A stretch of 64,000 nt of DNA from NCBI GenBank assembly GCA_947581765.1, contig CANPVU010000002.1, positions 123 through 64,122 on the forward strand, given 5' to 3'. The DNA comes from an uncultured Bacilli bacterium (GTDB lineage: Bacteria > Bacillota_I > Bacilli_A > RF39 > UBA660). Made by a program: the position numbers and the translations under genes. The notes under the pieces are model-generated. The model ran no database searches, was not told the origin of the DNA, and saw only the letters and a program-made list of their open reading frames with translations. Shown piece after piece: positions 5,942-62,041 of this stretch; position 1 is the first letter of the stretch; the number at the start of each line of letters is the position of its first letter.

Positions 5942-6466
5942 TGTTTCTATAATACCATAATTTCCATCTTTTCTTTGATATAATACATCAACATCTCCTG
6001 TATCTACATTTTTAAATACAAAGAATTCATGTCCTATCAAATTCATTTGAAGAATTGCCTCTTCTTCACTCATTGGTTTCATTTCTATTTCTTTTCTCTT
6101 CACAATTGTTTGCTCCGTTTCATCTTTTAAGTCCTCAAAGCTTAAATCAAAACCAATAGTTTCACTCTTATTTACACGCTTTTGCATTCTTGTCTTATTT
6201 TTTCTAATTTGTCTTTCTAACTTATCTGACACTATATCTATTGCTGCGTATAAATCTTCATGACGTTCCTCACATCTTAGAACAATTTTTTGGATTGGAA
6301 TAGTTACTTCTACAATTTGATCTCTACCAACAATTCTAATTACTACTTTAGCAGTTATATCTTCAGGATTTGATAAATATTTATCTAATTTACCAATTTT
6401 TTCCTCAATATACTTCTTTATTGGTTCAGTAACCTCAACTTTCTTCCCATGAATATTAAACTTCAT
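5936..6466 (-). CDS. hpf: Ribosome hibernation promoting factor, long form
   Basis: N-terminal S30AE-like region (MKFNIHGKKVEVTEPIKKYIEEK) and a C-terminal dimerisation region (PMSEEEAILQMNLIGHEFFVFKN). Confidence 0.9.
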   Translation of the reverse strand: MKFNIHGKKVEVTEPIKKYIEEKIGKLDKYLSNPEDITAKVVIRIVGRDQIVEVTIPIQKIVLRCEERHEDLYAAIDIVSDKLERQIRKNKTRMQKRVNKSETIGFDLSFEDLKDETEQTIVKRKEIEMKPMSEEEAILQMNLIGHEFFVFKNVDTGDVDVLYQRKDGNYGIIETK

Positions 6467-6530
6467 AATTATCATTCCCTTCCAATTACATTATATCACA
6501 TAATATGAAATTTCTTTATATAATTTTAAC

Positions 6531-6556
6531 AAAAAAATGTAGACATCATCTACATT
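6531..6556 (-). terminator. Rho-independent terminator after the cold-shock gene
   Basis: Stem AATGTAGA/TCTACATT with a 5-nt loop, followed by T7 on the minus strand. Confidence 0.7.
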
Positions 6557-6559
6557 AAT

Positions 6560-6775
6560 CTAAACTAATGTTGTTTTTATTTCTTCAACATTCTTTGCTT
6601 GTAATCCTTTAGCGGTATTAATAAGTTCAAAGTTTACATATTGACCTTCAAGTAAAGATCTATATCCTTTTGATTTAATAGCAGAATAATGAACAAATAT
6701 ATCATCTTTTCCTTCTACCTCTAAAAATCCATAACCTTTGTCATTATTAAACCATTTAACTTTTCCACTAATCAT
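6560..6775 (-). CDS. cspA: Cold-shock protein, CspA family
   Basis: Carries the RNP motifs KWFNNDKGYGFLE and DIFVHYSAI. Confidence 0.93.
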   Translation of the reverse strand: MISGKVKWFNNDKGYGFLEVEGKDDIFVHYSAIKSKGYRSLLEGQYVNFELINTAKGLQAKNVEEIKTTLV

Positions 6776-6835
6776 TTAATCATCCCTCCTAGAATAATTA
6801 TAACATGTATTAAGTCCATTGATAGAGTAAAGAAG

Positions 6836-6864
6836 TTGACAAAAATCGACATTTTTTGTATAAA
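6836..6864 (+). promoter_or_regulatory. Sigma-A-type promoter facing agrB
   Basis: TTGACA (6836-6841), 17-nt spacer, TATAAA (6859-6864). A perfect 14-bp palindrome TTTTGTGCACAAAA lies downstream at 6892-6905. Confidence 0.55.
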
Positions 6865-6978
6865 ATTATTCTTTTTAATTTAATTATTATGTTTTGTGCA
6901 CAAAATTGATGATTACAAACATATAATATTTGTTTTAAGTTAATTTAAATATATAATGGACTCATGGAGGTAAATTGT

Positions 6979-7596
6979 ATGAGAAAAAGAGTAGTAACAC
7001 TAATAACAAACTATATAAAAAAATATAAGGATTTAGATAAAGATAGCGAAGAAGTAATTATATATGGTTTAGAATCATTATATATTTTGATAACAAAGGT
7101 AGGTATGATTTTCATTTTAGCAGCAATACTAGGAATATTTAAAGAAACTTTTATATTTCTCTTATGCTTTAATGGAATTCGAGCATTTGCTTTTGGTTTA
7201 CACGCTACAAAAAGTTACATTTGCTTTATAGTTTCAACGATTGTATGTTTAGCGTTACCCTATTTAGCATCCTCTATCACAATTTTACAAATGTATAAAA
7301 TCATTATTGGAGTTATATGTACTTGTTTAATCTTTAAAAATAGTCCAGCTGATACTCATAAAAGACCAATTGTAAATCCTGTTAAAAGAAAAAAATTTAA
7401 AATAATTTCAACTTTAATTTCTATTTTTTATGTTATTTTATCACTATTTATAAATTCTTTTATAAGTAACTGCTTACTATTTAGTTTAATAGTAGAATCA
7501 ATTATAACTGCTCCTTTTACATATAAATTATTTAAGCTTCCATATAATAATTATATAAAATATTTAGAAGAGGAGGATGAAAATGTTTTTTGCTAA
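6979..7596 (+). CDS. agrB: AgrB-family membrane peptidase that processes the autoinducing peptide
   Basis: Polytopic membrane protein with FAFGLHATKSYICF, matching the conserved His/Cys pair of AgrB. GGAGGT lies 7 nt upstream of the ATG at 6979. Confidence 0.85.
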   Translation: MRKRVVTLITNYIKKYKDLDKDSEEVIIYGLESLYILITKVGMIFILAAILGIFKETFIFLLCFNGIRAFAFGLHATKSYICFIVSTIVCLALPYLASSITILQMYKIIIGVICTCLIFKNSPADTHKRPIVNPVKRKKFKIISTLISIFYVILSLFINSFISNCLLFSLIVESIITAPFTYKLFKLPYNNYIKYLEEEDENVFC

Positions 7597-7699
7597 TTTA
7601 TTAAGTGGATTTGCTACTTTATTTGCCAGTGAATGTTCTAATAAATGTTTAGTTCTTATCATTGACGAACCAAAATGTCCAAAAAGTTTAATTAAATAA
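7583..7699 (+). CDS. agrD: AgrD-like autoinducing peptide precursor; not in the ORF track
   Basis: Translates to MFFANLLSGFATLFASECSNKCLVLIIDEPKCPKSLIK. It has a hydrophobic N-terminus, Cys plus 4 residues, then an acidic/Pro tail (DEP..PKSL). AGGAGG at 7571-7576 lies 6 nt upstream, overlapping the end of agrB. An alternative ATG is at 7577. Confidence 0.75.
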   Translation: MFFANLLSGFATLFASECSNKCLVLIIDEPKCPKSLIK

Positions 7700-7703
7700 A
7701 TAT

Positions 7704-7726
7704 AACACCCTTGCTGGGTGTTTTTT
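7704..7726. terminator. Bidirectional terminator between the convergent agrBD and kinase genes
   Basis: Stem AACACCC/GGGTGTT with loop TTGCT. T-run on the plus strand and a T-rich tract on the minus strand. Confidence 0.7.
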
Positions 7727-7728
7727 GT

Positions 7729-9018
7729 TTATCTATTTATTTGAAGTACTTGAGTAAATTCATCAGAATTAATTTCATGATGGGTACGTAATTTAGAATT
7801 ATTTTTAACTAATTTTTTTACAAGTGATAATCCATATCCATGATTTCCACCCTTAGTACTAACTCCTGCTTTATATATGTCATCCTTTTTTATTGACGTA
7901 TCAAAAATATTTGTTATTAATATATTAAAAATATTATCTTCGTTATACATTTCAATTATAATATATTTCTCATTTAACTTATCAACTTCTTCTATTGCAT
8001 TATCCAAAAATATACCAATTATTTTACAAATATCCAACATAGTTTTCTCACCATAATCCAATAAATCTACTAATCTTACTGAACTAGATAATTCTAAATC
8101 ATAATCAATATTTTTATTTTTCATAAGTAACAATTTTGAATATATTAAACCTCTTAATCCACCACTTGGAATCATACTAGTTTCATGCATAATATTTTTA
8201 TCATCCTTTAGTTTATTATCCAATATAGTATCAATAAATTTAATTATTTTCTTACTAGTTGTCATATTTCTAATAGTCATAAGTTGATTTTTATTTTCAT
8301 GATTATCTATTCTATGATTAGTAAGTACATTTTCTAATTCTCTTAAGCTTACTAAACTACTATTATATTTATCAGATACTTTATAATAATCATTTTTAGT
8401 CTTAAAGAATAAACAAATAAATACAAATGAAATTATAGATATAATTAATGAAAAAATTGTTAAAAGTGATGGATTTAACAATGAAAAAGTATTTAAAGTT
8501 AAAATTCCATATATAAATAAAACAATTACAGATAAAAAAATTATAAATGTTTGATTCAATCTTTCTGTAGCATTGTCAAAGAAGTAATATAATTTTTTTA
8601 CTATTGGAATTTTAGATATTACTAATGAACAAAATGAAATTGATGTATTAGCAATAAAACTACCAAAATAATTATTGATAAATTTATCAGTATTATTTTT
8701 TAATAATATCATTAATATTAGCGCAAAAACAGATTCACTAACCATATATATTATTTGAGTAATAATTGGTCCAGTTAACGAGTTCTTTAAATTAACATCA
8801 AATAAAATTTTATATATTAAAATCAATATAATAGTTGTATTTATCGCTTTCAATGTAGCATGAATATTAAAATAGTTAATTAAAATTACTATACTAGCTC
8901 CCAAAATTATGAAAAGAGTTCTTAATTTAAACCATTTTATCTTTTCTGTTGACCAACTATTCCAAATTGTAAAAATTATTATTACCATAATAAAAGATGA
9001 AATTATTGTTCCAATCAT
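7729..9018 (-). CDS. agrC: AgrC-like sensor histidine kinase (multi-TM sensor plus GHKL ATPase)
   Basis: The N-terminal ~200 aa are hydrophobic with multiple TM segments. The C-terminus reads FLDNAIEE and STKGGNHGYGLSLVKKLV. It overlaps the upstream LytTR regulator gene by 4 nt. Confidence 0.8.
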   Translation of the reverse strand: MIGTIISSFIMVIIIFTIWNSWSTEKIKWFKLRTLFIILGASIVILINYFNIHATLKAINTTIILILIYKILFDVNLKNSLTGPIITQIIYMVSESVFALILMILLKNNTDKFINNYFGSFIANTSISFCSLVISKIPIVKKLYYFFDNATERLNQTFIIFLSVIVLFIYGILTLNTFSLLNPSLLTIFSLIISIISFVFICLFFKTKNDYYKVSDKYNSSLVSLRELENVLTNHRIDNHENKNQLMTIRNMTTSKKIIKFIDTILDNKLKDDKNIMHETSMIPSGGLRGLIYSKLLLMKNKNIDYDLELSSSVRLVDLLDYGEKTMLDICKIIGIFLDNAIEEVDKLNEKYIIIEMYNEDNIFNILITNIFDTSIKKDDIYKAGVSTKGGNHGYGLSLVKKLVKNNSKLRTHHEINSDEFTQVLQINR

Positions 9019-23992: not shown

Positions 23993-24125
23993 CTAATGTC
24001 CTCCCTTCGCCTATATCTCGTATAGACTTGCTCCGTGTAAAAACCCGATTCAGATTAATTGTTATTTGACAACTTAACCTGGTGTATCGGCAACCTCACA
24101 CATCAATGCATGCCACACAAAGACA
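23993..24125 (-). ncRNA. Structured, G+C-enriched 5' leader of the S10 operon; candidate r-protein autoregulatory leader
   Basis: About 130 nt between the promoter and the rpsJ ATG. It is visibly G+C-richer than its surroundings. Hand-folded hairpins include GUCUAUA-CGAGA-UAUAGGC and UUAAGUUGU-CAAAU-ACAAUUAA. Confidence 0.45.
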
Positions 24126-43049: not shown

Positions 43050-43161
43050 GTTTTCTCTCCTTCCGCCATGACTAATTTTAGTCATAGAAATTCAATTCTT
43101 CCATATTGTAACAAAAAATATAGATAATTGCAAGTATAATAAAAAGCCTTTATAACAAGGC

Positions 43162-53001: not shown

Positions 53002-53964
53002 TTAATCTAAATATATTTTTAATTTCTTTTCAAGTGCTTTCATAGTAGTATTATCAACTTGACATGCAGCATTTGTTAAATGCCCTCCACCACCAAATTC
53101 TTCCATAATACTACACACATCTACATTTCCTAAGCTTCTAGCACTTATACCTACTGTTTTCTTTTCTAATTGTCCTATTGTAAAACTTGCTTCTACACCT
53201 TCTAGTCCTAATAATGAATCAGATATTTCTGCTAATTCTGATTGCATACATACACTAAGAGGTAATAAGCATATAGCGTATCTTTTCTTATATACATAGC
53301 TACTTTTTATAAAATCTGCTTTTCTTAAAAATTCTCTTTTTGTTTCTTTTAAAAGATTTAATTTAAGTATACTATCAGCACCCTCACTAACTAAATAAGC
53401 TGCTGCTTCAAATGCTTTTTCTGTTATCTTAATATTAAATCCATTAGTATCAATTTCTATTCCTGTAAGCATAATAGTAGATACTATTGGACTCAAATCA
53501 ACTTTTAAATATTTACTATAAAATGATACCAATTCTGTTATTGAAGATAAAGATGAATCTATATAAAATAATTCAGTATTTTTTATATAGTTTGGTCTTT
53601 TTATATGATGATCTAATACAATTATATTCTTTATATCATTTAATATTTCAGGATATTCTAATCTCTCTTGTAAATGTGTATCTAAAATAATAAGTAAGGT
53701 ATTATCACTTATTATATTTTTATAATTAGATTTATCTATGTAATTAAAATTAGGAACTAACGTTATTGATTGCTTAAGAGTAGTATCAAGTTCTTCATTT
53801 TTTATATCAATAAATATATAATTTTCTTTATGCATTGAGTTTAATATAGAACTAAAACCTAAACATGATCCAAACGAATCTAAATCAGGTTGAGTATGAC
53901 CCATTAGTATTATTTTTTCATATTTTTTTATCAGTATTGTTAATTTTTCAAATAAACTTTCCAT
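53002..53964 (-). CDS. DHH/DHHA1 phosphoesterase (NrnA/GdpP catalytic-domain type)
   Basis: Contains GHTQPDLDSFGS, LDHH and GGGGH. At 320 aa it has no TM, PAS or GGDEF region. Confidence 0.85.
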   Translation of the reverse strand: MESLFEKLTILIKKYEKIILMGHTQPDLDSFGSCLGFSSILNSMHKENYIFIDIKNEELDTTLKQSITLVPNFNYIDKSNYKNIISDNTLLIILDTHLQERLEYPEILNDIKNIIVLDHHIKRPNYIKNTELFYIDSSLSSITELVSFYSKYLKVDLSPIVSTIMLTGIEIDTNGFNIKITEKAFEAAAYLVSEGADSILKLNLLKETKREFLRKADFIKSSYVYKKRYAICLLPLSVCMQSELAEISDSLLGLEGVEASFTIGQLEKKTVGISARSLGNVDVCSIMEEFGGGGHLTNAACQVDNTTMKALEKKLKIYLD

Positions 53965-54050: not shown

Positions 54051-54088
54051 TTGTAAAAAAAAAAATTAAGTCATTAATTAACTTAATT
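54051..54088 (-). terminator. Terminator after the alarmone synthetase gene
   Basis: Stem AATTAAGT/ACTTAATT, followed by a T-run of at least 11 on the minus strand. Confidence 0.7.
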
Positions 54089-54716
54089 ATTTTTTACCTT
54101 TAGAAAGAGCAAGTGATACCACATTATCTGTTGAATTACATACAGTAGCAAATGTTTCTAATTGTCCTTTTAACATTTCAGCAATCATAAGATCCTCTGG
54201 TTTATATCCAATTTTATGTTCCAATGATGCCCATGCATCCATAGCTGAAGTTCTAATTTGTATTTCTGTAGGTATTTGATATGAACCAGTTGTAAAATTA
54301 ACATCTATAAGATTTCTAATGTGCAAACTTTGATATCCACTTTTTTTGGGTTCTGCTATATAGTCTTTTACCTTAACAACTTTAAAGTTTTTATTATTAA
54401 GTATTAAATTTTTTATACACTCAACATCTCTTAAAGTTAAACAAACTATTCTTGCACCTACTATATCATGTACGTGTTCTTCTATATTTTCCATAGTAAA
54501 TTCAACATTACATTTTTCAAGTTTTCCTGCAATACTATCTATAGTCTTTATTCTATACTTTTCATTTTGTATCTCATTATATCCTTCTTGCCTTATTAAT
54601 TGTCCGTACTCAATATTAACTATACTTATTTGTGCTTTCAATATATTCAATGCTGCTTCATATATATATAAATTATTTAAAAAAGAATCTCTTTCACTTT
54701 TTGTTAATTTTGCCAT
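54087..54716 (-). CDS. Small alarmone synthetase (RelA/SpoT-homolog synthetase-only, RelP/RelQ-like)
   Basis: Contains DIVGARIVCL, DYIAEPKKSGYQSLH and EIQIRTSAMDAWASLEHKIGYK. AAAGGGGAG lies upstream of the ATG at 54716. Confidence 0.9.
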   Translation of the reverse strand: MAKLTKSERDSFLNNLYIYEAALNILKAQISIVNIEYGQLIRQEGYNEIQNEKYRIKTIDSIAGKLEKCNVEFTMENIEEHVHDIVGARIVCLTLRDVECIKNLILNNKNFKVVKVKDYIAEPKKSGYQSLHIRNLIDVNFTTGSYQIPTEIQIRTSAMDAWASLEHKIGYKPEDLMIAEMLKGQLETFATVCNSTDNVVSLALSKGKK

Positions 54717-54788
54717 TATTATCTCCCCTTTTCGAGCTAATAGTATATCAAAAAAGAATAATAAAATCAAATTAAAAAAACAGAAAAA

Positions 54789-54935
54789 TTATTCGTTATT
54801 TTCTGTTTCTTCATCCTCTTCTTTTGTATTTTTTTCTTTATTAAATTCTTCGTCTATAGCACTAAAATCTATAAATATTGAACCATCTTTAGATGTATAT
54901 GTATTTTCTAACTCTTTATCTATTTTTATTGCCAT
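54789..54935 (-). CDS. 48-aa acidic micro-protein; not in the ORF track
   Basis: Hand translation gives MAIKIDKELENTYTSKDGSIFIDFSAIDEEFNKEKNTKEEDEETENNE. GGAGGAAG lies immediately upstream of the ATG. It starts 10 nt after the upstream gene's stop. Confidence 0.5.
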   Translation of the reverse strand: MAIKIDKELENTYTSKDGSIFIDFSAIDEEFNKEKNTKEEDEETENNE

Positions 54936-54945
54936 ACTTCCTCCA

Positions 54946-56133
54946 CTATTTATTTCTTGAATATTTTTTTATTAATTCTTGTTTTGATAATCTATATGTT
55001 TCTTCAAATTGATGATTACTTTGAAAAAGTGATTTATAATAATTTTCATCTACTGTTAATCCTCTTTCTTCAGTAAAGAACATATATCTTGCATATATTA
55101 AATCTAAACTCATCATTAATTTTTTTGTATCAAATAGTACAATAAAATCAAGACCCTTACTTCTTAAATAATCTATTTTTTCTTTTAATCCACTAAATTC
55201 ATATCCATATATTGTTGGAAAGTTTAATGTCATTTGAATTATTTCATCATCTGTATACCCTAAACTCTTTAATCCATTAATATGATTTAATAATCGTTGT
55301 TTTGAATAACTATATATTGTTGGACAACCTAATGTTAATTTAATAGACTCCTCATTAGTATATCCTAACGATAATAAATCATTAAATTTATTTTTCATAG
55401 CAGATTTTTTCTTACAAAAAACTGCTGGATATGCCAAAGAAAATTTTTTTGACTGTTGTAATGTGTATCCTAGATTAACTAAATTTTGTAACTTACTATT
55501 TATTAAATTAATTGAATATGTAAACAATGATGGATTTCTTTTTTCCATTTTTATTACATTATCATAAGTAAATCCTAATTTTATTAAATCTTCTATTTTA
55601 GTATTTATATAATCTATATCATAATGTAATAACGATGGTTCAGAAGAATATATCTTTCTTACATCATTTTCTTCATAACCTAAATTTAGAAAATCTATCA
55701 TATTACTTTCAATCGTTTCTGTTGAATAACCAAATAAATTAGGACATCTTACTAACATATGTAATATTTCCTTATGCTTAAAACCAAGTATTATATAATC
55801 CTTAACTTTATTGTTAATATTGTCAATGCCATAAGTAAGTACTCTAGGAAATTTACTAATTATTTTTTTTACATCTTCAATGGATAAACCTAAAGAAATT
55901 AAATTATTTATTTTATAACTTGTAGTATCATCTTTACTAGTTATAATTTGAGGACAATTTTTAAACATTTTTATTATTTCTTGATGCGGATAACCAAGTT
56001 CTTGGAAATAATTATATGAATCTATAAATTTCATTTTTAAAGTATTATTTTTTGATTTATCAAATCTATGCGTGCTCATAAATTCATTAATTTCTTGATC
56101 ATTAAATTGAAAATTCTTTAAAAGTTCTCTCAC
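54946..56133 (-). CDS. Helical-repeat protein with about 9 tandem ~35-aa mTERF-like motifs
   Basis: Repeats follow the pattern x-I-x-x-L-x-x-LG[YFL]-x(4)-[IV]-x-K-x(3)-x-x-P-x-[ILV]-[FLY]. Examples: INNLISLGLSIEDVKKIISKFPRVLTYG and IEDLIKLGFTYDNVIKMEKRNPSLFTYS. Confidence 0.7.
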   Translation of the reverse strand: MRELLKNFQFNDQEINEFMSTHRFDKSKNNTLKMKFIDSYNYFQELGYPHQEIIKMFKNCPQIITSKDDTTSYKINNLISLGLSIEDVKKIISKFPRVLTYGIDNINNKVKDYIILGFKHKEILHMLVRCPNLFGYSTETIESNMIDFLNLGYEENDVRKIYSSEPSLLHYDIDYINTKIEDLIKLGFTYDNVIKMEKRNPSLFTYSINLINSKLQNLVNLGYTLQQSKKFSLAYPAVFCKKKSAMKNKFNDLLSLGYTNEESIKLTLGCPTIYSYSKQRLLNHINGLKSLGYTDDEIIQMTLNFPTIYGYEFSGLKEKIDYLRSKGLDFIVLFDTKKLMMSLDLIYARYMFFTEERGLTVDENYYKSLFQSNHQFEETYRLSKQELIKKYSRNK

Positions 56134-56177
56134 AGTTAATCACCAAGTACCTATTATATGATATGTATTATTATAAA

Positions 56178-57092
56178 TCAAATTTGCTTTTCTTTTATTT
56201 TACTAGCTAAAGCTTTTATTCTATTAAATCTATGATAAAGTCCTGATTTAGTAAGTGTTTCATTCGTTTCCATGCTTATAATTTCACTTAATTCTAGAAG
56301 AGAACTTTCAGGATATTTTAATCTATACATTGCTGCAACCTTATCTTTATCACTTAATAAATCGAGTCCTCCTGCTTCTTTTATAATATTGATATCATTT
56401 ACTTGATTAGTTGCGGTCGCTATTACTTTATCAACATTTGCTTGTTCACAGTTATTAAGTCTATTTGTCATATTTTTATGATCTCTATATATTCTAATAT
56501 CTTCAAAATAAAATAGTGCGTTAATAGCATTCATCATTCTAAGAAAATCTCCTATTTTTTCTGCTTCTTTAACATATATCATATATTTGTTATCTCTTTT
56601 TAACACTTTACTATTTAAATAATATTCATTTAACAAATCCTTAATAAAATTTGCATAATCAAAATTATCAACAAAAAACTCTAAATGATACCTAGATTTT
56701 TTAGGATCATTTACACTACCACATGATATAAAAAGTCCTCTAAGATATGCTCTTTTTGTTATATCATCATCTATTATAAAATTTTTAGGAATATTTGTAT
56801 CTAAACTTAAATCTTTTTTTATATCATCAATTTTTTTTGTCAATTCTATTACATATATATAATTTTTTGTATAATTATATCCATTACGTACACTAATTTT
56901 TGAAGATATATTATATAAATCTTTAATAGAACTAAATACATATCTAGCCACTGATGCATTTTCTGTAGTAATACTTATTGTTTTATCAATATTAGCACTA
57001 TTTTTTAATATCGCAGATAATTCAGCAATCATCTCTAATCTTTCATGGTTAAGTTTACTTACTTCATTTTTTACTTCACTTGTAAAAGACAT
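56178..57092 (-). CDS. whiA: DNA-binding protein WhiA
   Basis: Begins MSFTSEVKNEV; contains a degenerate LAGLIDADG-type domain (AYLRGLFISCGSV) and a C-terminal HTH. Follows yvcK. Confidence 0.92.
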   Translation of the reverse strand: MSFTSEVKNEVSKLNHERLEMIAELSAILKNSANIDKTISITTENASVARYVFSSIKDLYNISSKISVRNGYNYTKNYIYVIELTKKIDDIKKDLSLDTNIPKNFIIDDDITKRAYLRGLFISCGSVNDPKKSRYHLEFFVDNFDYANFIKDLLNEYYLNSKVLKRDNKYMIYVKEAEKIGDFLRMMNAINALFYFEDIRIYRDHKNMTNRLNNCEQANVDKVIATATNQVNDINIIKEAGGLDLLSDKDKVAAMYRLKYPESSLLELSEIISMETNETLTKSGLYHRFNRIKALASKIKEKQI

Positions 57093-58045: not shown

Positions 58046-58867
58046 TTATTTCCTTCTTTCTTTTTTATTCTTTGATTTAATAGGTTCAAAATAAGGAACT
58101 TTCTTTATCATTGATAAAACGATAAATAATATTCCAATCAAAAACATAATAACTGATACTAATTGCGCAATTCTAATTGGTCCTAACATTAAACTATCCT
58201 GCCTTAATCCTTCAACAATAAATCTTTCTATTCCATATATTATGAAATATATTCCAACTAAAGTACCAACTTTTAATCTTTTATATAATTTTTGAAGTAA
58301 AAAAATAATTATAAAACATATAAAACAAGTAATTGATTCATATAAAAAAGTAGGATGATGATATACTCCATTTATTTTCATACCATCTATTATAAAACTA
58401 GGTAAATGGATACTTTTTAGAAAATCTAGACTTACTATTGGTCCATAAGCTTCCTGATTAAAAAAATTTCCCCATCTACCTATTGCCTGACCTAATACTA
58501 GTGATGGAACAACTATATCCATAAATCTAAATATATTAACCTTATGCTTTTTAGTATAAAAATAAGTAAATATTATTCCTGCAATTACTCCGCCATGAAT
58601 AGCTAAACCACCATTCCAAACCTGAAATATTTCTAATAAATTTTCTTGATAATAACTCCATTCAAATATAACATAATATATTCTAGCACCTACAATAACT
58701 ATAGGAATAAGATAAAAGAAATAATCATAAAAAAAACTAGGTAATATCTCTGGATGTCTTTTTAATTCTATTTTTGCAAGAAAAAATCCTACTATGAATG
58801 CTAAAAGAATACATAACGAATACCAATAAACTGAAAATGAGCCTATTGAAAAAGCAATTGGGTTCAT
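58046..58867 (-). CDS. lgt: Prolipoprotein diacylglyceryl transferase
   Basis: Contains YWYSLCILLAF, GGLAIHGGVIAG and GRWGNFFNQEAYG. Confidence 0.94.
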   Translation of the reverse strand: MNPIAFSIGSFSVYWYSLCILLAFIVGFFLAKIELKRHPEILPSFFYDYFFYLIPIVIVGARIYYVIFEWSYYQENLLEIFQVWNGGLAIHGGVIAGIIFTYFYTKKHKVNIFRFMDIVVPSLVLGQAIGRWGNFFNQEAYGPIVSLDFLKSIHLPSFIIDGMKINGVYHHPTFLYESITCFICFIIIFLLQKLYKRLKVGTLVGIYFIIYGIERFIVEGLRQDSLMLGPIRIAQLVSVIMFLIGILFIVLSMIKKVPYFEPIKSKNKKERRK

Positions 58868-59298
58868 TTTTTCTTACCTCCTTTTATTAGTCCATCAATA
58901 ATACAATTATCCATTATAGCATTCATAATAGAAATAACGATTGATACTACAATTAACCATAACAATCCATTTATCTCAAGGTGTGAGCCTAATATCCAAT
59001 CAGATAATTTTAATATAAAAGCATTAATTAATGGATAGAATAATCCGAGAGTCATTGCTGTTATTGGAATAGTTAACCAAGTTAATACTGGTTTAATAGT
59101 TCTATTTAAAATAAATATTATACATACAGCAATAAAGCCATATATAAAACTAGATATGTATACTATATCTTTAAACAATATTGATACAGTAATAAGTACT
59201 AATGTATATCCTACTAAATGAATAAATATGTCTAATCCCTTACTAATACTTTGTCTTTTATTCCATTTTTTTAAGTCCACATTCTCTTTATTTTTCAT
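58864..59298 (-). CDS. DUF360/YvlD-type (holin-4-like) small membrane protein
   Basis: Four TM segments, with LNRTIKPVLTWLTIPITAMTLGLF. The context is housekeeping. Confidence 0.7.
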   Translation of the reverse strand: MKNKENVDLKKWNKRQSISKGLDIFIHLVGYTLVLITVSILFKDIVYISSFIYGFIAVCIIFILNRTIKPVLTWLTIPITAMTLGLFYPLINAFILKLSDWILGSHLEINGLLWLIVVSIVISIMNAIMDNCIIDGLIKGGKKK

Positions 59299-59941: not shown

Positions 59942-60268
59942 TTAATATTCATCACATTGCTTACTATATTGAATAGCTAAATCAATTATTTTATTAAGTA
60001 AAGACATGTTATTTCCTATATAATTAACATAATCTAGGCCTACTACTGATTCAAAATCTACTATTGCTTTATTAATACATTCCACTTTTATTTCAAATAA
60101 TTCTAAATAATTTAAAACAATATCATCTATAAAGTAGAAATTTTTATCTTTTAATAATCTATATATTTTGTCAAAGTTTTCTTGATTTAGTGAGTTTAAA
60201 TATTTTTCTTCATAATTGCTATAAAGTAAATCTAAATACGTAGAATTCAAATAGTTTTCTAAAAACAT
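59942..60268 (-). CDS. Hypothetical small helical protein
   Basis: 108 aa, spaced 6 nt from both neighbouring genes. Confidence 0.55.
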   Translation of the reverse strand: MFLENYLNSTYLDLLYSNYEEKYLNSLNQENFDKIYRLLKDKNFYFIDDIVLNYLELFEIKVECINKAIVDFESVVGLDYVNYIGNNMSLLNKIIDLAIQYSKQCDEY

Positions 60269-60274
60269 ATTAAT

Positions 60275-62041
60275 TCACATCCTCTTCTCATTATTAATAT
60301 AATATTGTTCAATTAATTCTTCTAAAGTATTACCATATTTACTTTTCATATCTAAACTACTCATATTAAATATTTCATGTAATATTCCTTGTTCATTTAT
60401 TATTGGTAAATTATTATCTAATAAAAATCTAATCTTTAATTCTAATTCTTGTATAGATATATGACTTAATATTGATATATTTTTATTATTATCTATTCCA
60501 TATTGACTACAAATTTCATCTATCATTTTTTTATTTTTTCTAATACGCCAAATCATTCCTATCTTTGAAAGAGTTTCATACCTTTCATCTTCTGGTTTTA
60601 ATCTTCTTCGTTGATTTGAAATCCATTGTCCTAAATTTACGCTACCTTCTTCATCATATGTATATCCATTATTTGTTTTAAAATTTATTGATATTTCTAA
60701 ATTTCCATGATGTTCATAATAAGTTTTAGCATACTCATACATTTCTTCCCATGTTAATGTACTTCTTATTTTTTTATAAAAATTCATTCCTATTTTTAGT
60801 AATTTTTTATATCTTTCATCTTCTGAATTTAAAGATTTTCGCTGAGTATGGATCCATCTTCCTAAATTTATATTTCCTTCTTCATCATATGTATATCCAT
60901 CATTTGTTTTAAATTTTTGAGGTATTTGTAAATTTCCATAATGTTCATAATATATTTTGGCATACTCATACATTTCTTCCCATGTTAATGTACTTCTTAT
61001 TTTTTTATAAAAATTCATTCCTATTTTTAGTAATTTTTTATATCTTTCATCTTCTGAACTTAAAGATTTTCGCTGAGTATGGATCCATCTTCCTAAATTT
61101 ATGTTTCCTTCTTCATCATATGTATATCCATCATTTGTTTTAAATTTTTGGAGTACTTCTAAATTTCCATGATGCTCATAATATATTTTGGCATACTCAT
61201 ACATTCTATCCCATTTTAATTCATCTATATTTTTAAAACACATTCCTATTTCTAACAATTTTTTATATTTTTCATCTTCTGGTGTTAATTTTCTTCGCTG
61301 ATTTAAAATCCATTGTCCTAAATTTACTCTTCCTTCTTCATCATATGTATATCCATCATTTGTTTTAAATTTTTGGAGTACTTCTAAATTTCCATGATGT
61401 TCATAATATATTTTGGCATACTCATACATTCTATTCCAGTTTAATTCATCTAATTTCTCAAAACGCATTCCTATTTCTAGTAATTTTTTATATCTTTCAT
61501 CATCTGGTTTTAATATATTTCTCTGCCTATTAATCCATTGTCCTAAATTTACGCTTCCTTCTTCATCATATGTATATCCATCATTTGTTTTAAATTTTTG
61601 AAGTACTTCTAAATTTCCATAGTGTTCATAATATATTTTGGCATACTTATACATCTTATTCCAAGATTGAATATTTAAATCTTTTTCTTTTTGATAATAG
61701 TATACATTTAAAGACTCTAATATTTTTTCTAATGATTTTGGTAATTTATTTTTTAAAATCATTAACATTGTAAATAAATGTTGTTTTCTTATTTTTAAAA
61801 CAAATGATTTTTCACAAAGTTGTATTGTGTTATATGTTCTTAAATTAATATCTTTAATAGTTTTAAACTCTTGTTCTAGAATTTTAAGTAATTCATCTTG
61901 TCCTACTATAACTTCCTTTATTTGACCATCTATTAGTACTTTAAAGCCTATATTAGTTCTATCATTTATATCTAACAATACATCATTTTTATATTGTTCT
62001 GGAATAAAAATATCAATTACTTTACCTATTAAAATTACCAT
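60275..62041 (-). CDS. Protein with five tandem helicase-associated (HA, PF03457-like) domains and no helicase core
   Basis: Five repeats of W-x-x-MYEYAKIYYEH[HY]GNLEV..KFKTNDGYTYDEEG..NLG.WI..QR..L..EDERYKKLL.IGM. Starts 23 nt after the uvrB stop. Confidence 0.75.
   Translation of the reverse strand: MVILIGKVIDIFIPEQYKNDVLLDINDRTNIGFKVLIDGQIKEVIVGQDELLKILEQEFKTIKDINLRTYNTIQLCEKSFVLKIRKQHLFTMLMILKNKLPKSLEKILESLNVYYYQKEKDLNIQSWNKMYKYAKIYYEHYGNLEVLQKFKTNDGYTYDEEGSVNLGQWINRQRNILKPDDERYKKLLEIGMRFEKLDELNWNRMYEYAKIYYEHHGNLEVLQKFKTNDGYTYDEEGRVNLGQWILNQRRKLTPEDEKYKKLLEIGMCFKNIDELKWDRMYEYAKIYYEHHGNLEVLQKFKTNDGYTYDEEGNINLGRWIHTQRKSLSSEDERYKKLLKIGMNFYKKIRSTLTWEEMYEYAKIYYEHYGNLQIPQKFKTNDGYTYDEEGNINLGRWIHTQRKSLNSEDERYKKLLKIGMNFYKKIRSTLTWEEMYEYAKTYYEHHGNLEISINFKTNNGYTYDEEGSVNLGQWISNQRRRLKPEDERYETLSKIGMIWRIRKNKKMIDEICSQYGIDNNKNISILSHISIQELELKIRFLLDNNLPIINEQGILHEIFNMSSLDMKSKYGNTLEELIEQYYINNEKRM
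60547..61689. repeat. Intragenic tandem DNA repeat: 5 units of 231, 231, 231, 225 and 225 bp
   Basis: The anchor TCATCATATG recurs at 60651, 60882, 61113, 61338 and 61563. Units starting near 60750 and 60981 differ at only a few positions over about 150 nt. Confidence 0.9.

Follow-up and report, generated by a model that had tools for sequence, protein, structure and literature searches.

The 395-residue protein encoded at positions 54,946 to 56,133 on the reverse strand of the 64-kb stretch of DNA analysed here (the window) almost certainly belongs to the mTERF family. Its gene is an accessory one, restricted to its clade and evolving fast, that is inserted between whiA and a conserved 48-residue ORF. 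Its adjacency to whiA is a positional, clade-specific accident and not a functional link. We think it somewhat more likely than not that the product is, taken as a whole, a cytoplasmic protein of the prokaryotic mTERF (pTERF) type, encoded by an accessory gene with its own promoter, that wraps double-stranded DNA as a regulator or roadblock.

Family assignment and fold

The gene was delimited from the ORF list and the Pfam match, with a GTG start and the stop codon included in the coordinates. The protein matches the Pfam mTERF model PF02536 with 147.2 bits (E = 6.9e-43, cut-off 23.1) in three matched stretches, and two relatives, the ortholog at locus L036 and the protein at locus L003, score 109.6 and 170.7 bits, respectively. 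A phmmer search against the PDB returned MTERF3 as the best match (2.4e-9), MTERF1 (~1e-7) and then MTERF4. The AF2 model is confident (pLDDT 90.6, pTM 0.79), and helices of about 10, 5 and 13 residues repeat throughout it. According to Foldseek, the eight top matches of this model are MTERF1-DNA complexes (E ~2e-9, TM-score to the target 0.51-0.62), followed by MTERF3 with the highest TM-score to the target (0.75); the Foldseek probability is 1.00 for MTERF1, MTERF3 and MTERF4, with TM-scores to the target of 0.51-0.75. Also matched with confidence are MTERF4, as part of assembly intermediates of the mitoribosome, and a Tetrahymena mitoribosomal mTERF protein, and designed left-handed α/α toroids match the model as well. 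The three-helix motifs, which in this family have two α-helices and one short 3-10-like helix, are predicted to stack into a left-handed superhelix as in the solved structures of MTERF1 and MTERF3, the handedness being taken from these structural matches.

The earlier note had read mTERF-like repeats from the letters, and had named assignment to another helical-repeat class such as TPR, PPR or HEAT as the outcome that would speak against them. The profile score, the PDB matches and the confident model bear out the mTERF identity, and structure prediction, which the note had suggested as a check, agrees, with MTERF1-DNA, MTERF3, the mitoribosomal mTERF protein and MTERF4 as best structural matches. 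No TPR, PPR, HEAT or Armadillo family was found in Pfam even at E <= 1, and none is among the 50 Foldseek matches listed. No NCBIfam model matches the window protein. Pfam also listed UBA, RuvA_C and the like, none with a passing stretch; we take these for low-complexity echoes that the ‘LGYS..E.I’ helix produces, rather than for domains.

The nuclear encoding and organellar targeting of classical mTERF proteins do not apply here, the contig being bacterial and the gene having whiA on one side and DHH-rplI-dnaB on the other. Nuclear encoding and organelle targeting describe the distribution of the family, not its fold or homology. The literature does describe the family as overwhelmingly eukaryotic, as the earlier note had put it, but a prokaryotic mTERF-like family, pTERF, was already published in 2024 (PMC11417379).

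Repeat architecture

The ORF is as the earlier note described it, and all four peptides quoted there are present in the translation. Residues 1-37 (56,023 to 56,133, reverse strand) form a degenerate N-terminal capping repeat, with AF2 helices at residues 2-7, 12-21 and 29-45; its aligned counterpart in homologues is the ‘LGYTxEExxEIL’ N-cap. The following eight canonical 35-residue repeats (residues 38-317; 55,183 to 56,022, reverse strand) were delimited by the LG[YFL] spacing, the periodicity and DSSP of the AF2 model. Each consists of a ~13-residue helix, an LG[YFL] turn, a 10-residue helix, an invariant proline, which is present in 8/8 repeats, and a short 5-residue helix. The L-G-[YFL] anchors fall at residues 46, 81, 116, 151, 186, 221, 256 and 291, an exact 35-residue period. 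The BLOSUM62 autocorrelation of the protein peaks at lags 35, 70 and 105, and the lag-35 value is 0.71 compared to an all-lag maximum of -0.53 ± 0.06 in 1000 shuffles (z = 22), although the repeats share only 14-51% identity with one another (mean 27%). The regular repeat of about 35 residues proposed earlier is thus exact over residues 38-317, and “about nine” was a fair count for eight canonical repeats with one degenerate unit at each end.

Residues 318-395 (54,949 to 55,182, reverse strand) comprise, according to our family alignment A1, the degenerate last repeat (318-352) and a conserved, family-specific C-terminal tail that reads KKLMMSLDLIYARYMFF...ELIKKY. Invariant or nearly invariant columns at this end of the alignment are L339, Y347, R349, Y350, F352, L369 and F370, and in an exhaustive search the match extends through residue ~392 in most of the best 150 hits of 1444. 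At the other end, homologues have their Met1 in line with the N-terminus, in favour of the GTG start; because the N-terminus is itself the repeat N-cap in the alignment, there is no room for a presequence. With a pI of 8.8 the protein is mildly basic; the median of long family members is 8.5. In composition the gene is indistinguishable from its neighbours; it was found on at least nine contigs from several samples, and an error of assembly can be set aside for the junction between whiA and the ORF, which recurs in contigs of three or more independent samples.

Genomic neighbourhood

As stated in the earlier note, the gene starts 44 nt downstream of whiA (56,178 to 57,092, reverse strand; Pfam WhiA_N, LAGLIDADG_WhiA and HTH_WhiA), which serves here as context only, and is followed by a micro-ORF and an alarmone synthetase. 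The micro-ORF, of 48 residues and acidic (54,789 to 54,935, reverse strand), begins 10 nt downstream with a GGAGG Shine-Dalgarno sequence, and has no family match in Pfam, NCBIfam, PHROGs or PADLOC. Its orthologs (NTYTSxDGSIFIDFDAxD and an acidic tail) occur at loci L035, L036 and L038, and it is called as a gene at L033; its position near whiA is conserved in the clade, with or without the mTERF gene. The small alarmone synthetase (54,087 to 54,716, reverse strand; RelA_SpoT in Pfam at 5.8e-28, 209 residues from its ATG, GGGGAG Shine-Dalgarno) is variably present, and among close relatives is found only in the window and L035, with a 209-residue gene called at L033. Leaders and synteny in the window are of Firmicutes type, consistent with an origin in Bacillota.

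The backbone of this region is lgt-yvcK-whiA-(DHH)-L9-dnaB, in which the interval between whiA and DHH/L9 is a variable slot where the alarmone synthetase is also gained and lost. We surveyed 80 metagenome loci anchored on WhiA (53-82% identical). Besides the window itself, just L036 and L037 have the mTERF gene after whiA, and 78 of the 80 lack it; at L035 and L038, which are as close to the window as the carriers, whiA runs straight to the 48-residue ORF. Presence and absence therefore vary among genomes whose WhiA proteins are 79-82% identical. The ortholog at L036 aligns without gaps over 393 residues with 48% identity and 70% positives, compared to 82-86% identity for WhiA, YvcK, L9 and DnaB (86% for L9). 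The LG turns, the prolines, the hydrophobic core and the C-terminal tail are preserved between the two. A survey anchored on the mTERF gene instead covered 31 homologous loci from GTDB species representatives, and at not one of them did whiA, yvcK, DHH, L9, dnaB or the alarmone synthetase gene lie 6 kb away or less. The role in nucleoid or transcription control that the earlier note drew from the placement next to whiA does not survive these surveys, with whiA and yvcK near 0/31 homologous loci and the mTERF gene at only 2/80 WhiA-anchored ones; a lack of whiA linkage among homologues, which the note itself had named as a refutation, is what the 31 loci show. The locus is a caution that a neighbouring whiA is no basis for assigning function.

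Promoter and terminator

A generic scan for promoters and terminators is uninformative at 25% GC, and we therefore relied on an alignment of the spacers and on direct RNA folding. The consensus scan marks a promoter-like element, TTGATT-17 nt-TATAAT (56,153 to 56,181, reverse strand), whose -35 hexamer overlaps the whiA stop codon, and a GGTGA Shine-Dalgarno sequence lies 7 nt before the GTG start. Such a hit alone is not significant in AT-rich DNA (45 promoter calls versus 49.7 expected at 25% GC), but the spacer alignment shows the same arrangement, TTGATT/TTGCTT-17-TATAAT with GGTGG, upstream of the L036 and L037 orthologs. Folding of the spacer gave no stable hairpin between whiA and the mTERF gene. 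Downstream, a 15-bp A/U-rich hairpin with a U tract (54,773 to 54,813, reverse strand) overlaps the stop codon of the 48-residue ORF and is a probable intrinsic terminator; it has a folding energy of -13.3 kcal/mol (z = -4.9), and 0/200 shuffles were as stable. The consensus scan missed it because it demands at least three G-C pairs. Both elements remain putative as to activity. Because all three orthologous spacers hold the promoter-like element, the gene need not belong to the yvcK-whiA transcription unit, as the earlier note had it, although read-through could make it a member.

Distribution of the family

An exhaustive search found 1444 representative relatives at E <= 1e-3, of which 495 reach E <= 1e-10, where a word-indexed protein search had returned only 13-14, without names. 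Similarly, a genome scan of GTDB representatives with the single protein gave no locus, and an alignment-based scan gave 31. All 31 lie in uncultured gut MAGs, 28 labelled Clostridia, Bacilli, Firmicutes or Clostridium and three Muribaculaceae; five are in ruminant RGIG MAGs, the source catalogue of pTERF1. One RGIG relative, MBQ3475117.1, belongs to the same accession series as pTERF1 and is annotated as ‘hypothetical protein’ in NCBI. The family comprises several hundred clusters at 50% identity from uncultured gut Bacillota and is essentially unannotated.

At other loci, family genes often stand in tandem arrays of paralogs, and in about 24 of the 31 an acidic (pI 4.3), strongly conserved mini-mTERF of 131 residues and three repeats lies beside the long members, which suggests heteromeric complexes. 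Neither this partner nor a second mTERF gene is present within the 64-kb window; a tblastn hit at 60,656-61,360 (E = 0.026) is noise inside a helicase-associated-domain repeat protein. Long relatives (594-1589 residues) owe their length to additional mTERF repeats alone and carry no other informative domain. At four related loci, which share other flanking genes too, mTERF genes adjoin a SpoU/TrmH-type RNA methyltransferase, rimM and trmD, and at L030, on a complete MAG chromosome, the homologous region is broken into ORFs of 61-96 residues.

The 904 repeats that we extracted from 220 proteins have a period of 35 residues, and the positions most variable within a protein are 22, 23, 25, 28 and 29, around the invariant Pro24. 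The regular expression used for extraction fixed G10 and P24; among positions free of it, L9 is found in 78% of repeats, and positions 3, 6, 16, 17, 19, 26, 27, 31 and 34 are hydrophobic. PHROGs gave only hits of E >= 0.003 with no passing stretch, PADLOC gave none, and searches of IMG/VR contigs, phage genomes and plasmids turned up no relatives; these results speak against a phage, plasmid or defence-system gene.

Possible functions

Could the protein recognize DNA as its best structural matches do? In the reading that we prefer, its roughly ten 35-residue three-helix units would stack into the left-handed mTERF superhelix, and the concave face would, by analogy with human MTERF1 and with pTERF1 and pTERF2, wrap one particular site in double-stranded DNA, ~10-20 bp long. 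The role of the protein would be that of a site-specific regulator or a transcriptional roadblock, and the hypervariable residues flanking the invariant proline of each repeat probably set its specificity. The gene would have its own sigma-A-type promoter and would probably be co-transcribed with the 48-residue ORF up to the terminator hairpin. Nucleic-acid binding, the preference for double-stranded DNA and the regulatory role are those that we infer for the window protein from its characterized relatives.

Co-transcription with whiA as a functional partner of WhiA or YvcK, acting in nucleoid, cell-division or transcription control, would be suggested by the gap of 44 nt on the same strand with no intervening terminator hairpin, an arrangement that recurs at L036 and L037. 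We regard it as highly improbable and largely refuted, given that neither whiA nor yvcK lies within 6 kb of any of the 31 homologous loci, that 78 of 80 WhiA-anchored loci, including L035 and L038, do without the gene, that the spacer holds a conserved private promoter-like element, and that other genes also come and go in this slot, the alarmone synthetase among them. An RNA-binding or ribosome-biogenesis factor, whose solenoid would bind rRNA or another structured RNA and aid its assembly, modification or splicing, is possible, if on the unlikely side. Several mTERF proteins do bind RNA, such as MTERF4 on rRNA, plant mTERF4 on introns and the mitoribosomal mTERF subunits. Models for such a factor are MTERF3, MTERF4-NSUN4, plant mTERF4/9 and mitoribosomal mTERF subunits. 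MTERF3 is the best PDB match by sequence and has the highest TM-score, the Tetrahymena mitoribosomal protein and MTERF4 in mitoribosome intermediates are among the confident structural matches, and the RNA methyltransferase, rimM and trmD stand beside mTERF genes at four loci. That neighbourhood, however, is confined to these four related loci, where other flanks are shared as well. Moreover, a housekeeping ribosome gene would not be expected to come and go among genomes with WhiA 79-82% identical, or to diverge to 48% identity where L9 keeps 86%, and the sole bacterial relatives assayed bind double-stranded DNA sequence-specifically with nanomolar affinity (PMC11417379).

The acidic mini-mTERF beside long members, together with a conserved C-terminal tail that could serve as an interaction module, might instead point to a protein-protein scaffold with no nucleic-acid ligand, comparable to MTERF4-NSUN4, for which the mini-mTERF may be the partner elsewhere. 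This seems to us quite improbable: the window has no partner gene, the window protein is basic overall, pTERF1 and pTERF2 are described as binding DNA alone (PMC11417379), and a protein partner and DNA binding can coexist. A patchy phyletic pattern, fast divergence and the broken region at L030 would fit a decaying, functionless relic of horizontal transfer, for instance from a gut eukaryote, that is still open by chance. We find this scarcely credible for a reading frame of 395 codons in DNA of 23% GC, where stop codons are frequent, with a gapless L036 ortholog (393 residues, 70% positives) that keeps the structural positions, a conserved promoter-like element and Shine-Dalgarno sequence, a composition like that of its neighbours and no relatives in phage, plasmid or viral collections.

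Beyond the site-specific DNA binder that we prefer, the bacterial mTERF expansion might represent modular, rapidly re-targetable, sequence-specific DNA binders with a recognition code in the hypervariable residues flanking the proline, the organellar fold might have a prokaryotic source or have passed between eukaryotes and gut bacteria, and the copy beside whiA, with its own promoter, might be a roadblock or insulator against read-through into genes downstream. We consider this extension speculative and unlikely. If true, re-targetable recognition repeats would bear on the evolution of organellar gene-expression factors and on the search for DNA-targeting tools.

Comparison with known systems

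Structurally, human MTERF1 (PDB codes: 3MVA, 3N6S) comes closest (Foldseek E 2.4e-9, probability 1.0, TM-score to the target up to 0.62), with ~19-20% identity in structural alignments. Common to both are the left-handed superhelix of three-helix mTERF motifs, predicted in our case, and the conserved proline. MTERF1, however, is nuclear-encoded and mitochondrially targeted with eight interspersed motifs, whereas the window protein has strictly tandem 35-residue units and a C-terminal tail specific to the bacterial family; MTERF1 terminates transcription, for which it unwinds the DNA and flips out three bases. MTERF3 (3M66) and MTERF4 (4FP9, 7O9K) have the same fold, and MTERF3 is the closest by both PDB sequence search and TM-score (0.75), but they act in mitoribosome biogenesis and bind rRNA or, in the case of MTERF4, NSUN4. 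The variable, accessory distribution of the window gene does not indicate a bacterial counterpart of this role.

TALE and TALE-like proteins are similar in having tandem helical repeats of ~33-35 residues, a DNA-wrapping superhelix and within-protein variability at few positions per repeat, and 4HPZ is a weak structural match (E 3e-3). Their repeat fold is different (TM-score 0.25-0.27), there is no sequence relationship, the window protein has no secretion signal, and no one-repeat-one-base code is established for mTERF repeats.

The nearest known kind are the prokaryotic mTERF-like ‘pTERF’ proteins reported in 2024 in Nucleic Acids Research (PMC11417379), although a plant mTERF paper of 2026 still calls mTERF proteins absent from prokaryotes. 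According to the 2024 report, pTERF1 (MBQ3414883.1) has a 35-residue period and annotated mTERF motifs and binds ACTNNNAGTC with a Kd of 1.87 nM, while pTERF2 binds a different motif; both are described as binding double-stranded DNA specifically in vitro, on their own and with nanomolar affinity (PMC11417379), and DNA binding is demonstrated there for these two only. The likeness of the window protein to them is circumstantial and drawn from the published description, not from sequence: both come from uncultured gut Bacillota MAGs, the ruminant RGIG catalogue that yielded pTERF1 also holds homologues of the window protein, and both are built of tandem 35-residue three-helix mTERF units (3-11 as described, ~10 in the window protein). 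The window protein differs in keeping the canonical proline and heptad features, both of which pTERF1 is stated to be without (PMC11417379), and its repeats (mean 27% identity) are far more irregular than those of the regular pTERF-like relatives. Its gene also stands alone, whereas most related loci have tandem paralogs or the 131-residue partner. Prokaryotic mTERF-like proteins are already known as a kind from this report, to which the window gene adds one member; as a clear bacterial member, at 147 bits on a Pfam model derived from eukaryotes, it supports and extends the single report of 2024. Beyond that report, as far as its text was available, our analysis adds that the family is sizeable, that its presence varies even among close genomes, and that its genes frequently form tandem arrays with an acidic mini-mTERF partner.

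Repeat architecture and fold of the mTERF protein

The mTERF gene (54946..56133, minus strand) starts with GTG and encodes 395 residues, in which an L-G-[YFL] anchor recurs at residues 46, 81, 116, 151, 186, 221, 256 and 291, an exact 35-residue period. In a BLOSUM62 autocorrelation, lags of 35, 70 and 105 stand out, and at lag 35 the signal exceeds the best lag of shuffled sequences (n = 1000) by 22 SD; the periodicity is therefore far beyond chance, with a pairwise identity among the repeats of only 14-51%. The mTERF-typical proline is found in all eight canonical units. Because these are flanked by degenerate units at residues 1-37 and 318-352, the latter followed by a conserved tail, the estimate of about nine repeats in the earlier note is a fair one, and the four peptides quoted there are all present in the translation.

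Pfam assigns the protein to the mTERF family (PF02536; E = 6.9e-43), its score of 147 bits exceeding the curated cut-off of 23.1 bits. The TPR, PPR and HEAT families, considered as competing assignments, are absent from its Pfam matches even at E ≤ 1, and NCBIfam has no model matching it. Among solved structures, a sequence search retrieved human MTERF3 (2.4e-9), MTERF1 (~1e-7) and MTERF4. An AlphaFold2 model built from 19 sequences is confident (mean pLDDT 90.6, pTM 0.79) and consists of repeating helices of 10, 5 and 13 residues. In Foldseek the top matches are MTERF1-DNA complexes, with E 2.4e-9, a probability of 1.0 and a TM to target of at most 0.62; next come MTERF3 (TM to target 0.75), an mTERF protein of the Tetrahymena mitoribosome and then MTERF4, with a TALE and designed left-handed toroids far behind. 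By sequence and by fold, the window protein is thus a member of the mTERF family, as had been proposed.

Relatives and accompanying genes

The closest sequence found overall, the ortholog at metagenome locus L036, is 48% identical, and none of the matches listed by two protein-database searches exceeds ~40%. Despite this lack of close relatives among the listed matches, the bacterial family is sizeable: among 1.84 billion cluster representatives searched exhaustively with HMMER, 1444 match at E ≤ 1e-3, 495 at ≤ 1e-10 and 92 at ≤ 1e-30. A profile-guided scan of GTDB species representatives yielded 31 loci, all in uncultured gut MAGs (goat, water buffalo, rabbit, human and others), of which 28 are labelled Clostridia, Bacilli, Firmicutes or Clostridium (including Clostridium sp. 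CAG:433). The remaining three (L024, L026 and L029) are labelled Muribaculaceae (Bacteroidota). Since the flanks of L029 share SpoU-type methyltransferase, rimM and trmD families with the Bacilli-labelled L008 and L018, misbinning or mislabelling seems a likelier explanation than a real occurrence in Bacteroidota.

The bacterial proteins have in common an N-terminal cap, a variable number of 35-residue repeats and a family-specific C-terminal tail (…LMQSxxLxYARYxF…ELLxKY). In a set of 904 repeats from 220 proteins, units are most often spaced exactly 35 residues apart, with the consensus QKIEDLxSLGYSKEEVIKMTKxLPxIYGYSIENIK, and within-protein variability is highest at repeat positions 22, 23, 25, 28 and 29, clustered round the invariant proline. 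Relatives of 594-1589 residues are longer repeat arrays only, in which no extra domains were found. In L030 (CP091739.1, a 1.53-Mb MAG chromosome) an mTERF-homologous region at 6031-8292 is split into ORFs of 61-96 residues, reflecting either pseudogene formation or frameshifts introduced by misassembly.

In the related loci, long mTERF genes often stand in tandem, in arrays of up to five or six. Beside them, in about 24 of 31 loci (within L002-L032 and L034; e.g. L032 6987-7382, L018 5570-5965, L034 6445-6843), lies a strongly conserved, very acidic protein of ~131 residues (pI 4.3). This small protein also consists of mTERF repeats, three of them (Pfam mTERF 3.7e-11), and could act as either partner or antagonist of the long ones. 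An ORF of 150-165 residues (…YSIAYSEVLEILKHISQEDYEKIP…), without a match in Pfam, PHROGs or PADLOC, is repeatedly found directly 3' of mTERF genes, in 11 loci (L003, L004, L005, L006, L009, L011, L012, L014, L016, L022 and L028; e.g. L016 7040-7537). The window contains neither of these, nor a second mTERF gene.

The interval downstream of whiA

The local layout is as described earlier, with a 44-nt gap after whiA and the 48-residue ORF (orf48; 54789..54935, minus strand) and a RelA_SpoT-domain synthetase downstream; the whiA-mTERF junction is also recorded on contigs from several independent samples. The earlier note had read a role in nucleoid or transcription control from this adjacency. 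We surveyed the linkage in both directions and found none conserved, so that this reading is not supported: none of the 31 mTERF-anchored loci has whiA, yvcK, alarmone synthetase, DHH, rplI or dnaB within 6 kb, and of 80 metagenome loci with WhiA 53-82% identical to that of the window, only L036 and L037 carry the mTERF gene.

The WhiA-anchored loci share a stable backbone, lgt-yvcK-whiA-(DHH)-rplI-dnaB-M23. After whiA, the window has mTERF, orf48, alarmone synthetase and DHH; L036 (WhiA 82%) has mTERF, orf48 and DHH without the synthetase; L037 (81%) has the mTERF N-terminus before the contig ends; L035 (82%) has orf48, synthetase and DHH without mTERF; and L038 (79%) has orf48, again without mTERF, before its contig ends. 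In 75 more distant loci no mTERF gene follows whiA. The interval 3' of whiA is therefore a variable slot, in which the mTERF gene and the alarmone synthetase are gained and lost independently, and it is orf48, not mTERF, that is the conserved neighbour of whiA. The mTERF gene is accessory and evolves fast, yet under structural constraint: its L036 ortholog can be aligned over 393 residues with no gap but is only 48% identical, whereas WhiA, YvcK, L9 and DnaB are 82-86% identical between the two genomes.

The small orf48 is a real, conserved gene that always directly follows either whiA or, where inserted, the mTERF gene. It encodes an acidic protein of 48 residues behind a GGAGG Shine-Dalgarno sequence, and its orthologs in L035 (5947-), L036 (7162-) and L038 (3926-) share NTYTSxDGSIFIDFDAxD followed by an acidic tail; Pfam, NCBIfam, PHROGs and PADLOC gave no family match. 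The small alarmone synthetase is likewise accessory in this slot. It occurs in the window (54087-54716, minus strand) and in L035 (6113-6787; 52% identity), only these two among the 80 WhiA-anchored loci, and at 109 bits the window copy falls far below the NCBIfam YjbM equivalog cut-off of 320.

The whiA-mTERF spacer holds a promoter-like element (TTGATT-17 nt-TATAAT), whose -35 hexamer overlaps the stop codon of whiA, and after this element a GGTGA Shine-Dalgarno sequence. Taken alone, such a scan hit is weak evidence in DNA of 25% GC (45 sites found vs. 49.7 expected). The same arrangement is conserved upstream of the L036 and L037 orthologs (TTGATT or TTGCTT, 17 nt, TATAAT, then GGTGG). Folding of the spacer gave no stable hairpin, and therefore read-through from whiA is also possible. 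A 15-bp A/U-rich hairpin leading into a U tract overlaps the orf48 stop (-13.3 kcal/mol, z = -4.9; none of 200 shuffles folds as well), which suggests that the mTERF-orf48 unit ends here and that the synthetase is transcribed separately.

Other genes of the window

The stand-alone DHH/DHHA1 protein (53002-53964, minus strand; 320 residues) lies upstream of rplI-dnaB, where Firmicutes usually carry the longer GdpP. Only some relatives in the clade have this gene; in others rplI directly follows whiA. Immediately upstream of lgt, a 144-residue membrane protein of the Phage_holin_4_2 family (58864-59298, minus strand) belongs to the chromosomal core and not to a prophage, because it is kept beside lgt in many related loci (38-83% identity). 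A second tandem-repeat protein, ~4 kb upstream of the mTERF gene (60275-62041, minus strand; 588 residues), has at least five ~70-residue 'helicase-associated' repeats (HA, PF03457; E = 2.7e-61) and is followed by a 108-residue ORF (59942-60268) with no family match. Rfam detects an S10-Clostridia ribosomal-protein leader (24007-24114, minus strand) and an L31-Firmicutes leader (43057-43087, minus strand), consistent with a Bacillota origin.

Possible function and relation to pTERF proteins

A plant paper from 2026 still describes bacterial genomes as lacking mTERF genes. Prokaryotic mTERF-like 'pTERF' proteins were described in 2024 in Nucleic Acids Research (PMC11417379), the only paper on bacterial mTERF proteins that we found. 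In that study, members have 3-11 units and come mostly from Bacillota MAGs; pTERF1 (MBQ3414883.1), with a 35-residue repeat period, stems from the ruminant RGIG catalogue, from a MAG named 'Clostridia bacterium', and binds ACTNNNAGTC with a Kd of 1.87 nM, and pTERF2 binds a different motif.

Could the window protein be a site-specific dsDNA-binding regulator or roadblock? We consider this somewhat better than an even chance, by analogy, since nanomolar binding to specific dsDNA is known from the sole tested bacterial relatives, the pTERF proteins, and since DNA-bound MTERF1 gives the best structural matches. Specificity would then be carried by the variable residues round the repeat proline. 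The protein is mildly basic (pI 8.8) and lacks a signal sequence, and searches connected it to no phage, plasmid or known defence system. The good matches to MTERF3 and MTERF4 would also suit RNA binding or a role in ribosome biogenesis, although a housekeeping function is hard to square with a gene that near-identical genomes may have or lack, and we regard such a role as rather unlikely. A protein scaffold is more doubtful again, and a partnership with WhiA, its neighbour in the window, is very improbable. Least probable of all is a functionless relic, which is opposed by an ortholog alignment that has no gaps and preserves the structure, and by the conserved promoter-like element.

As a 'whiA operon' feature the gene is ordinary; its interest lies in its family. 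From the matching descriptions we strongly infer that this is the pTERF family. The RGIG catalogue is the origin of five of the 31 mTERF loci, and one of their proteins, annotated 'hypothetical protein', is MBQ3475117.1, from the same accession series as pTERF1. The window gene is a new, irregular-repeat member of a recently described and still poorly known prokaryotic mTERF-like family. One point at odds with the pTERF match is that the canonical proline and heptad features, absent from pTERF1 by the account in PMC11417379, are present in the window protein and its relatives.
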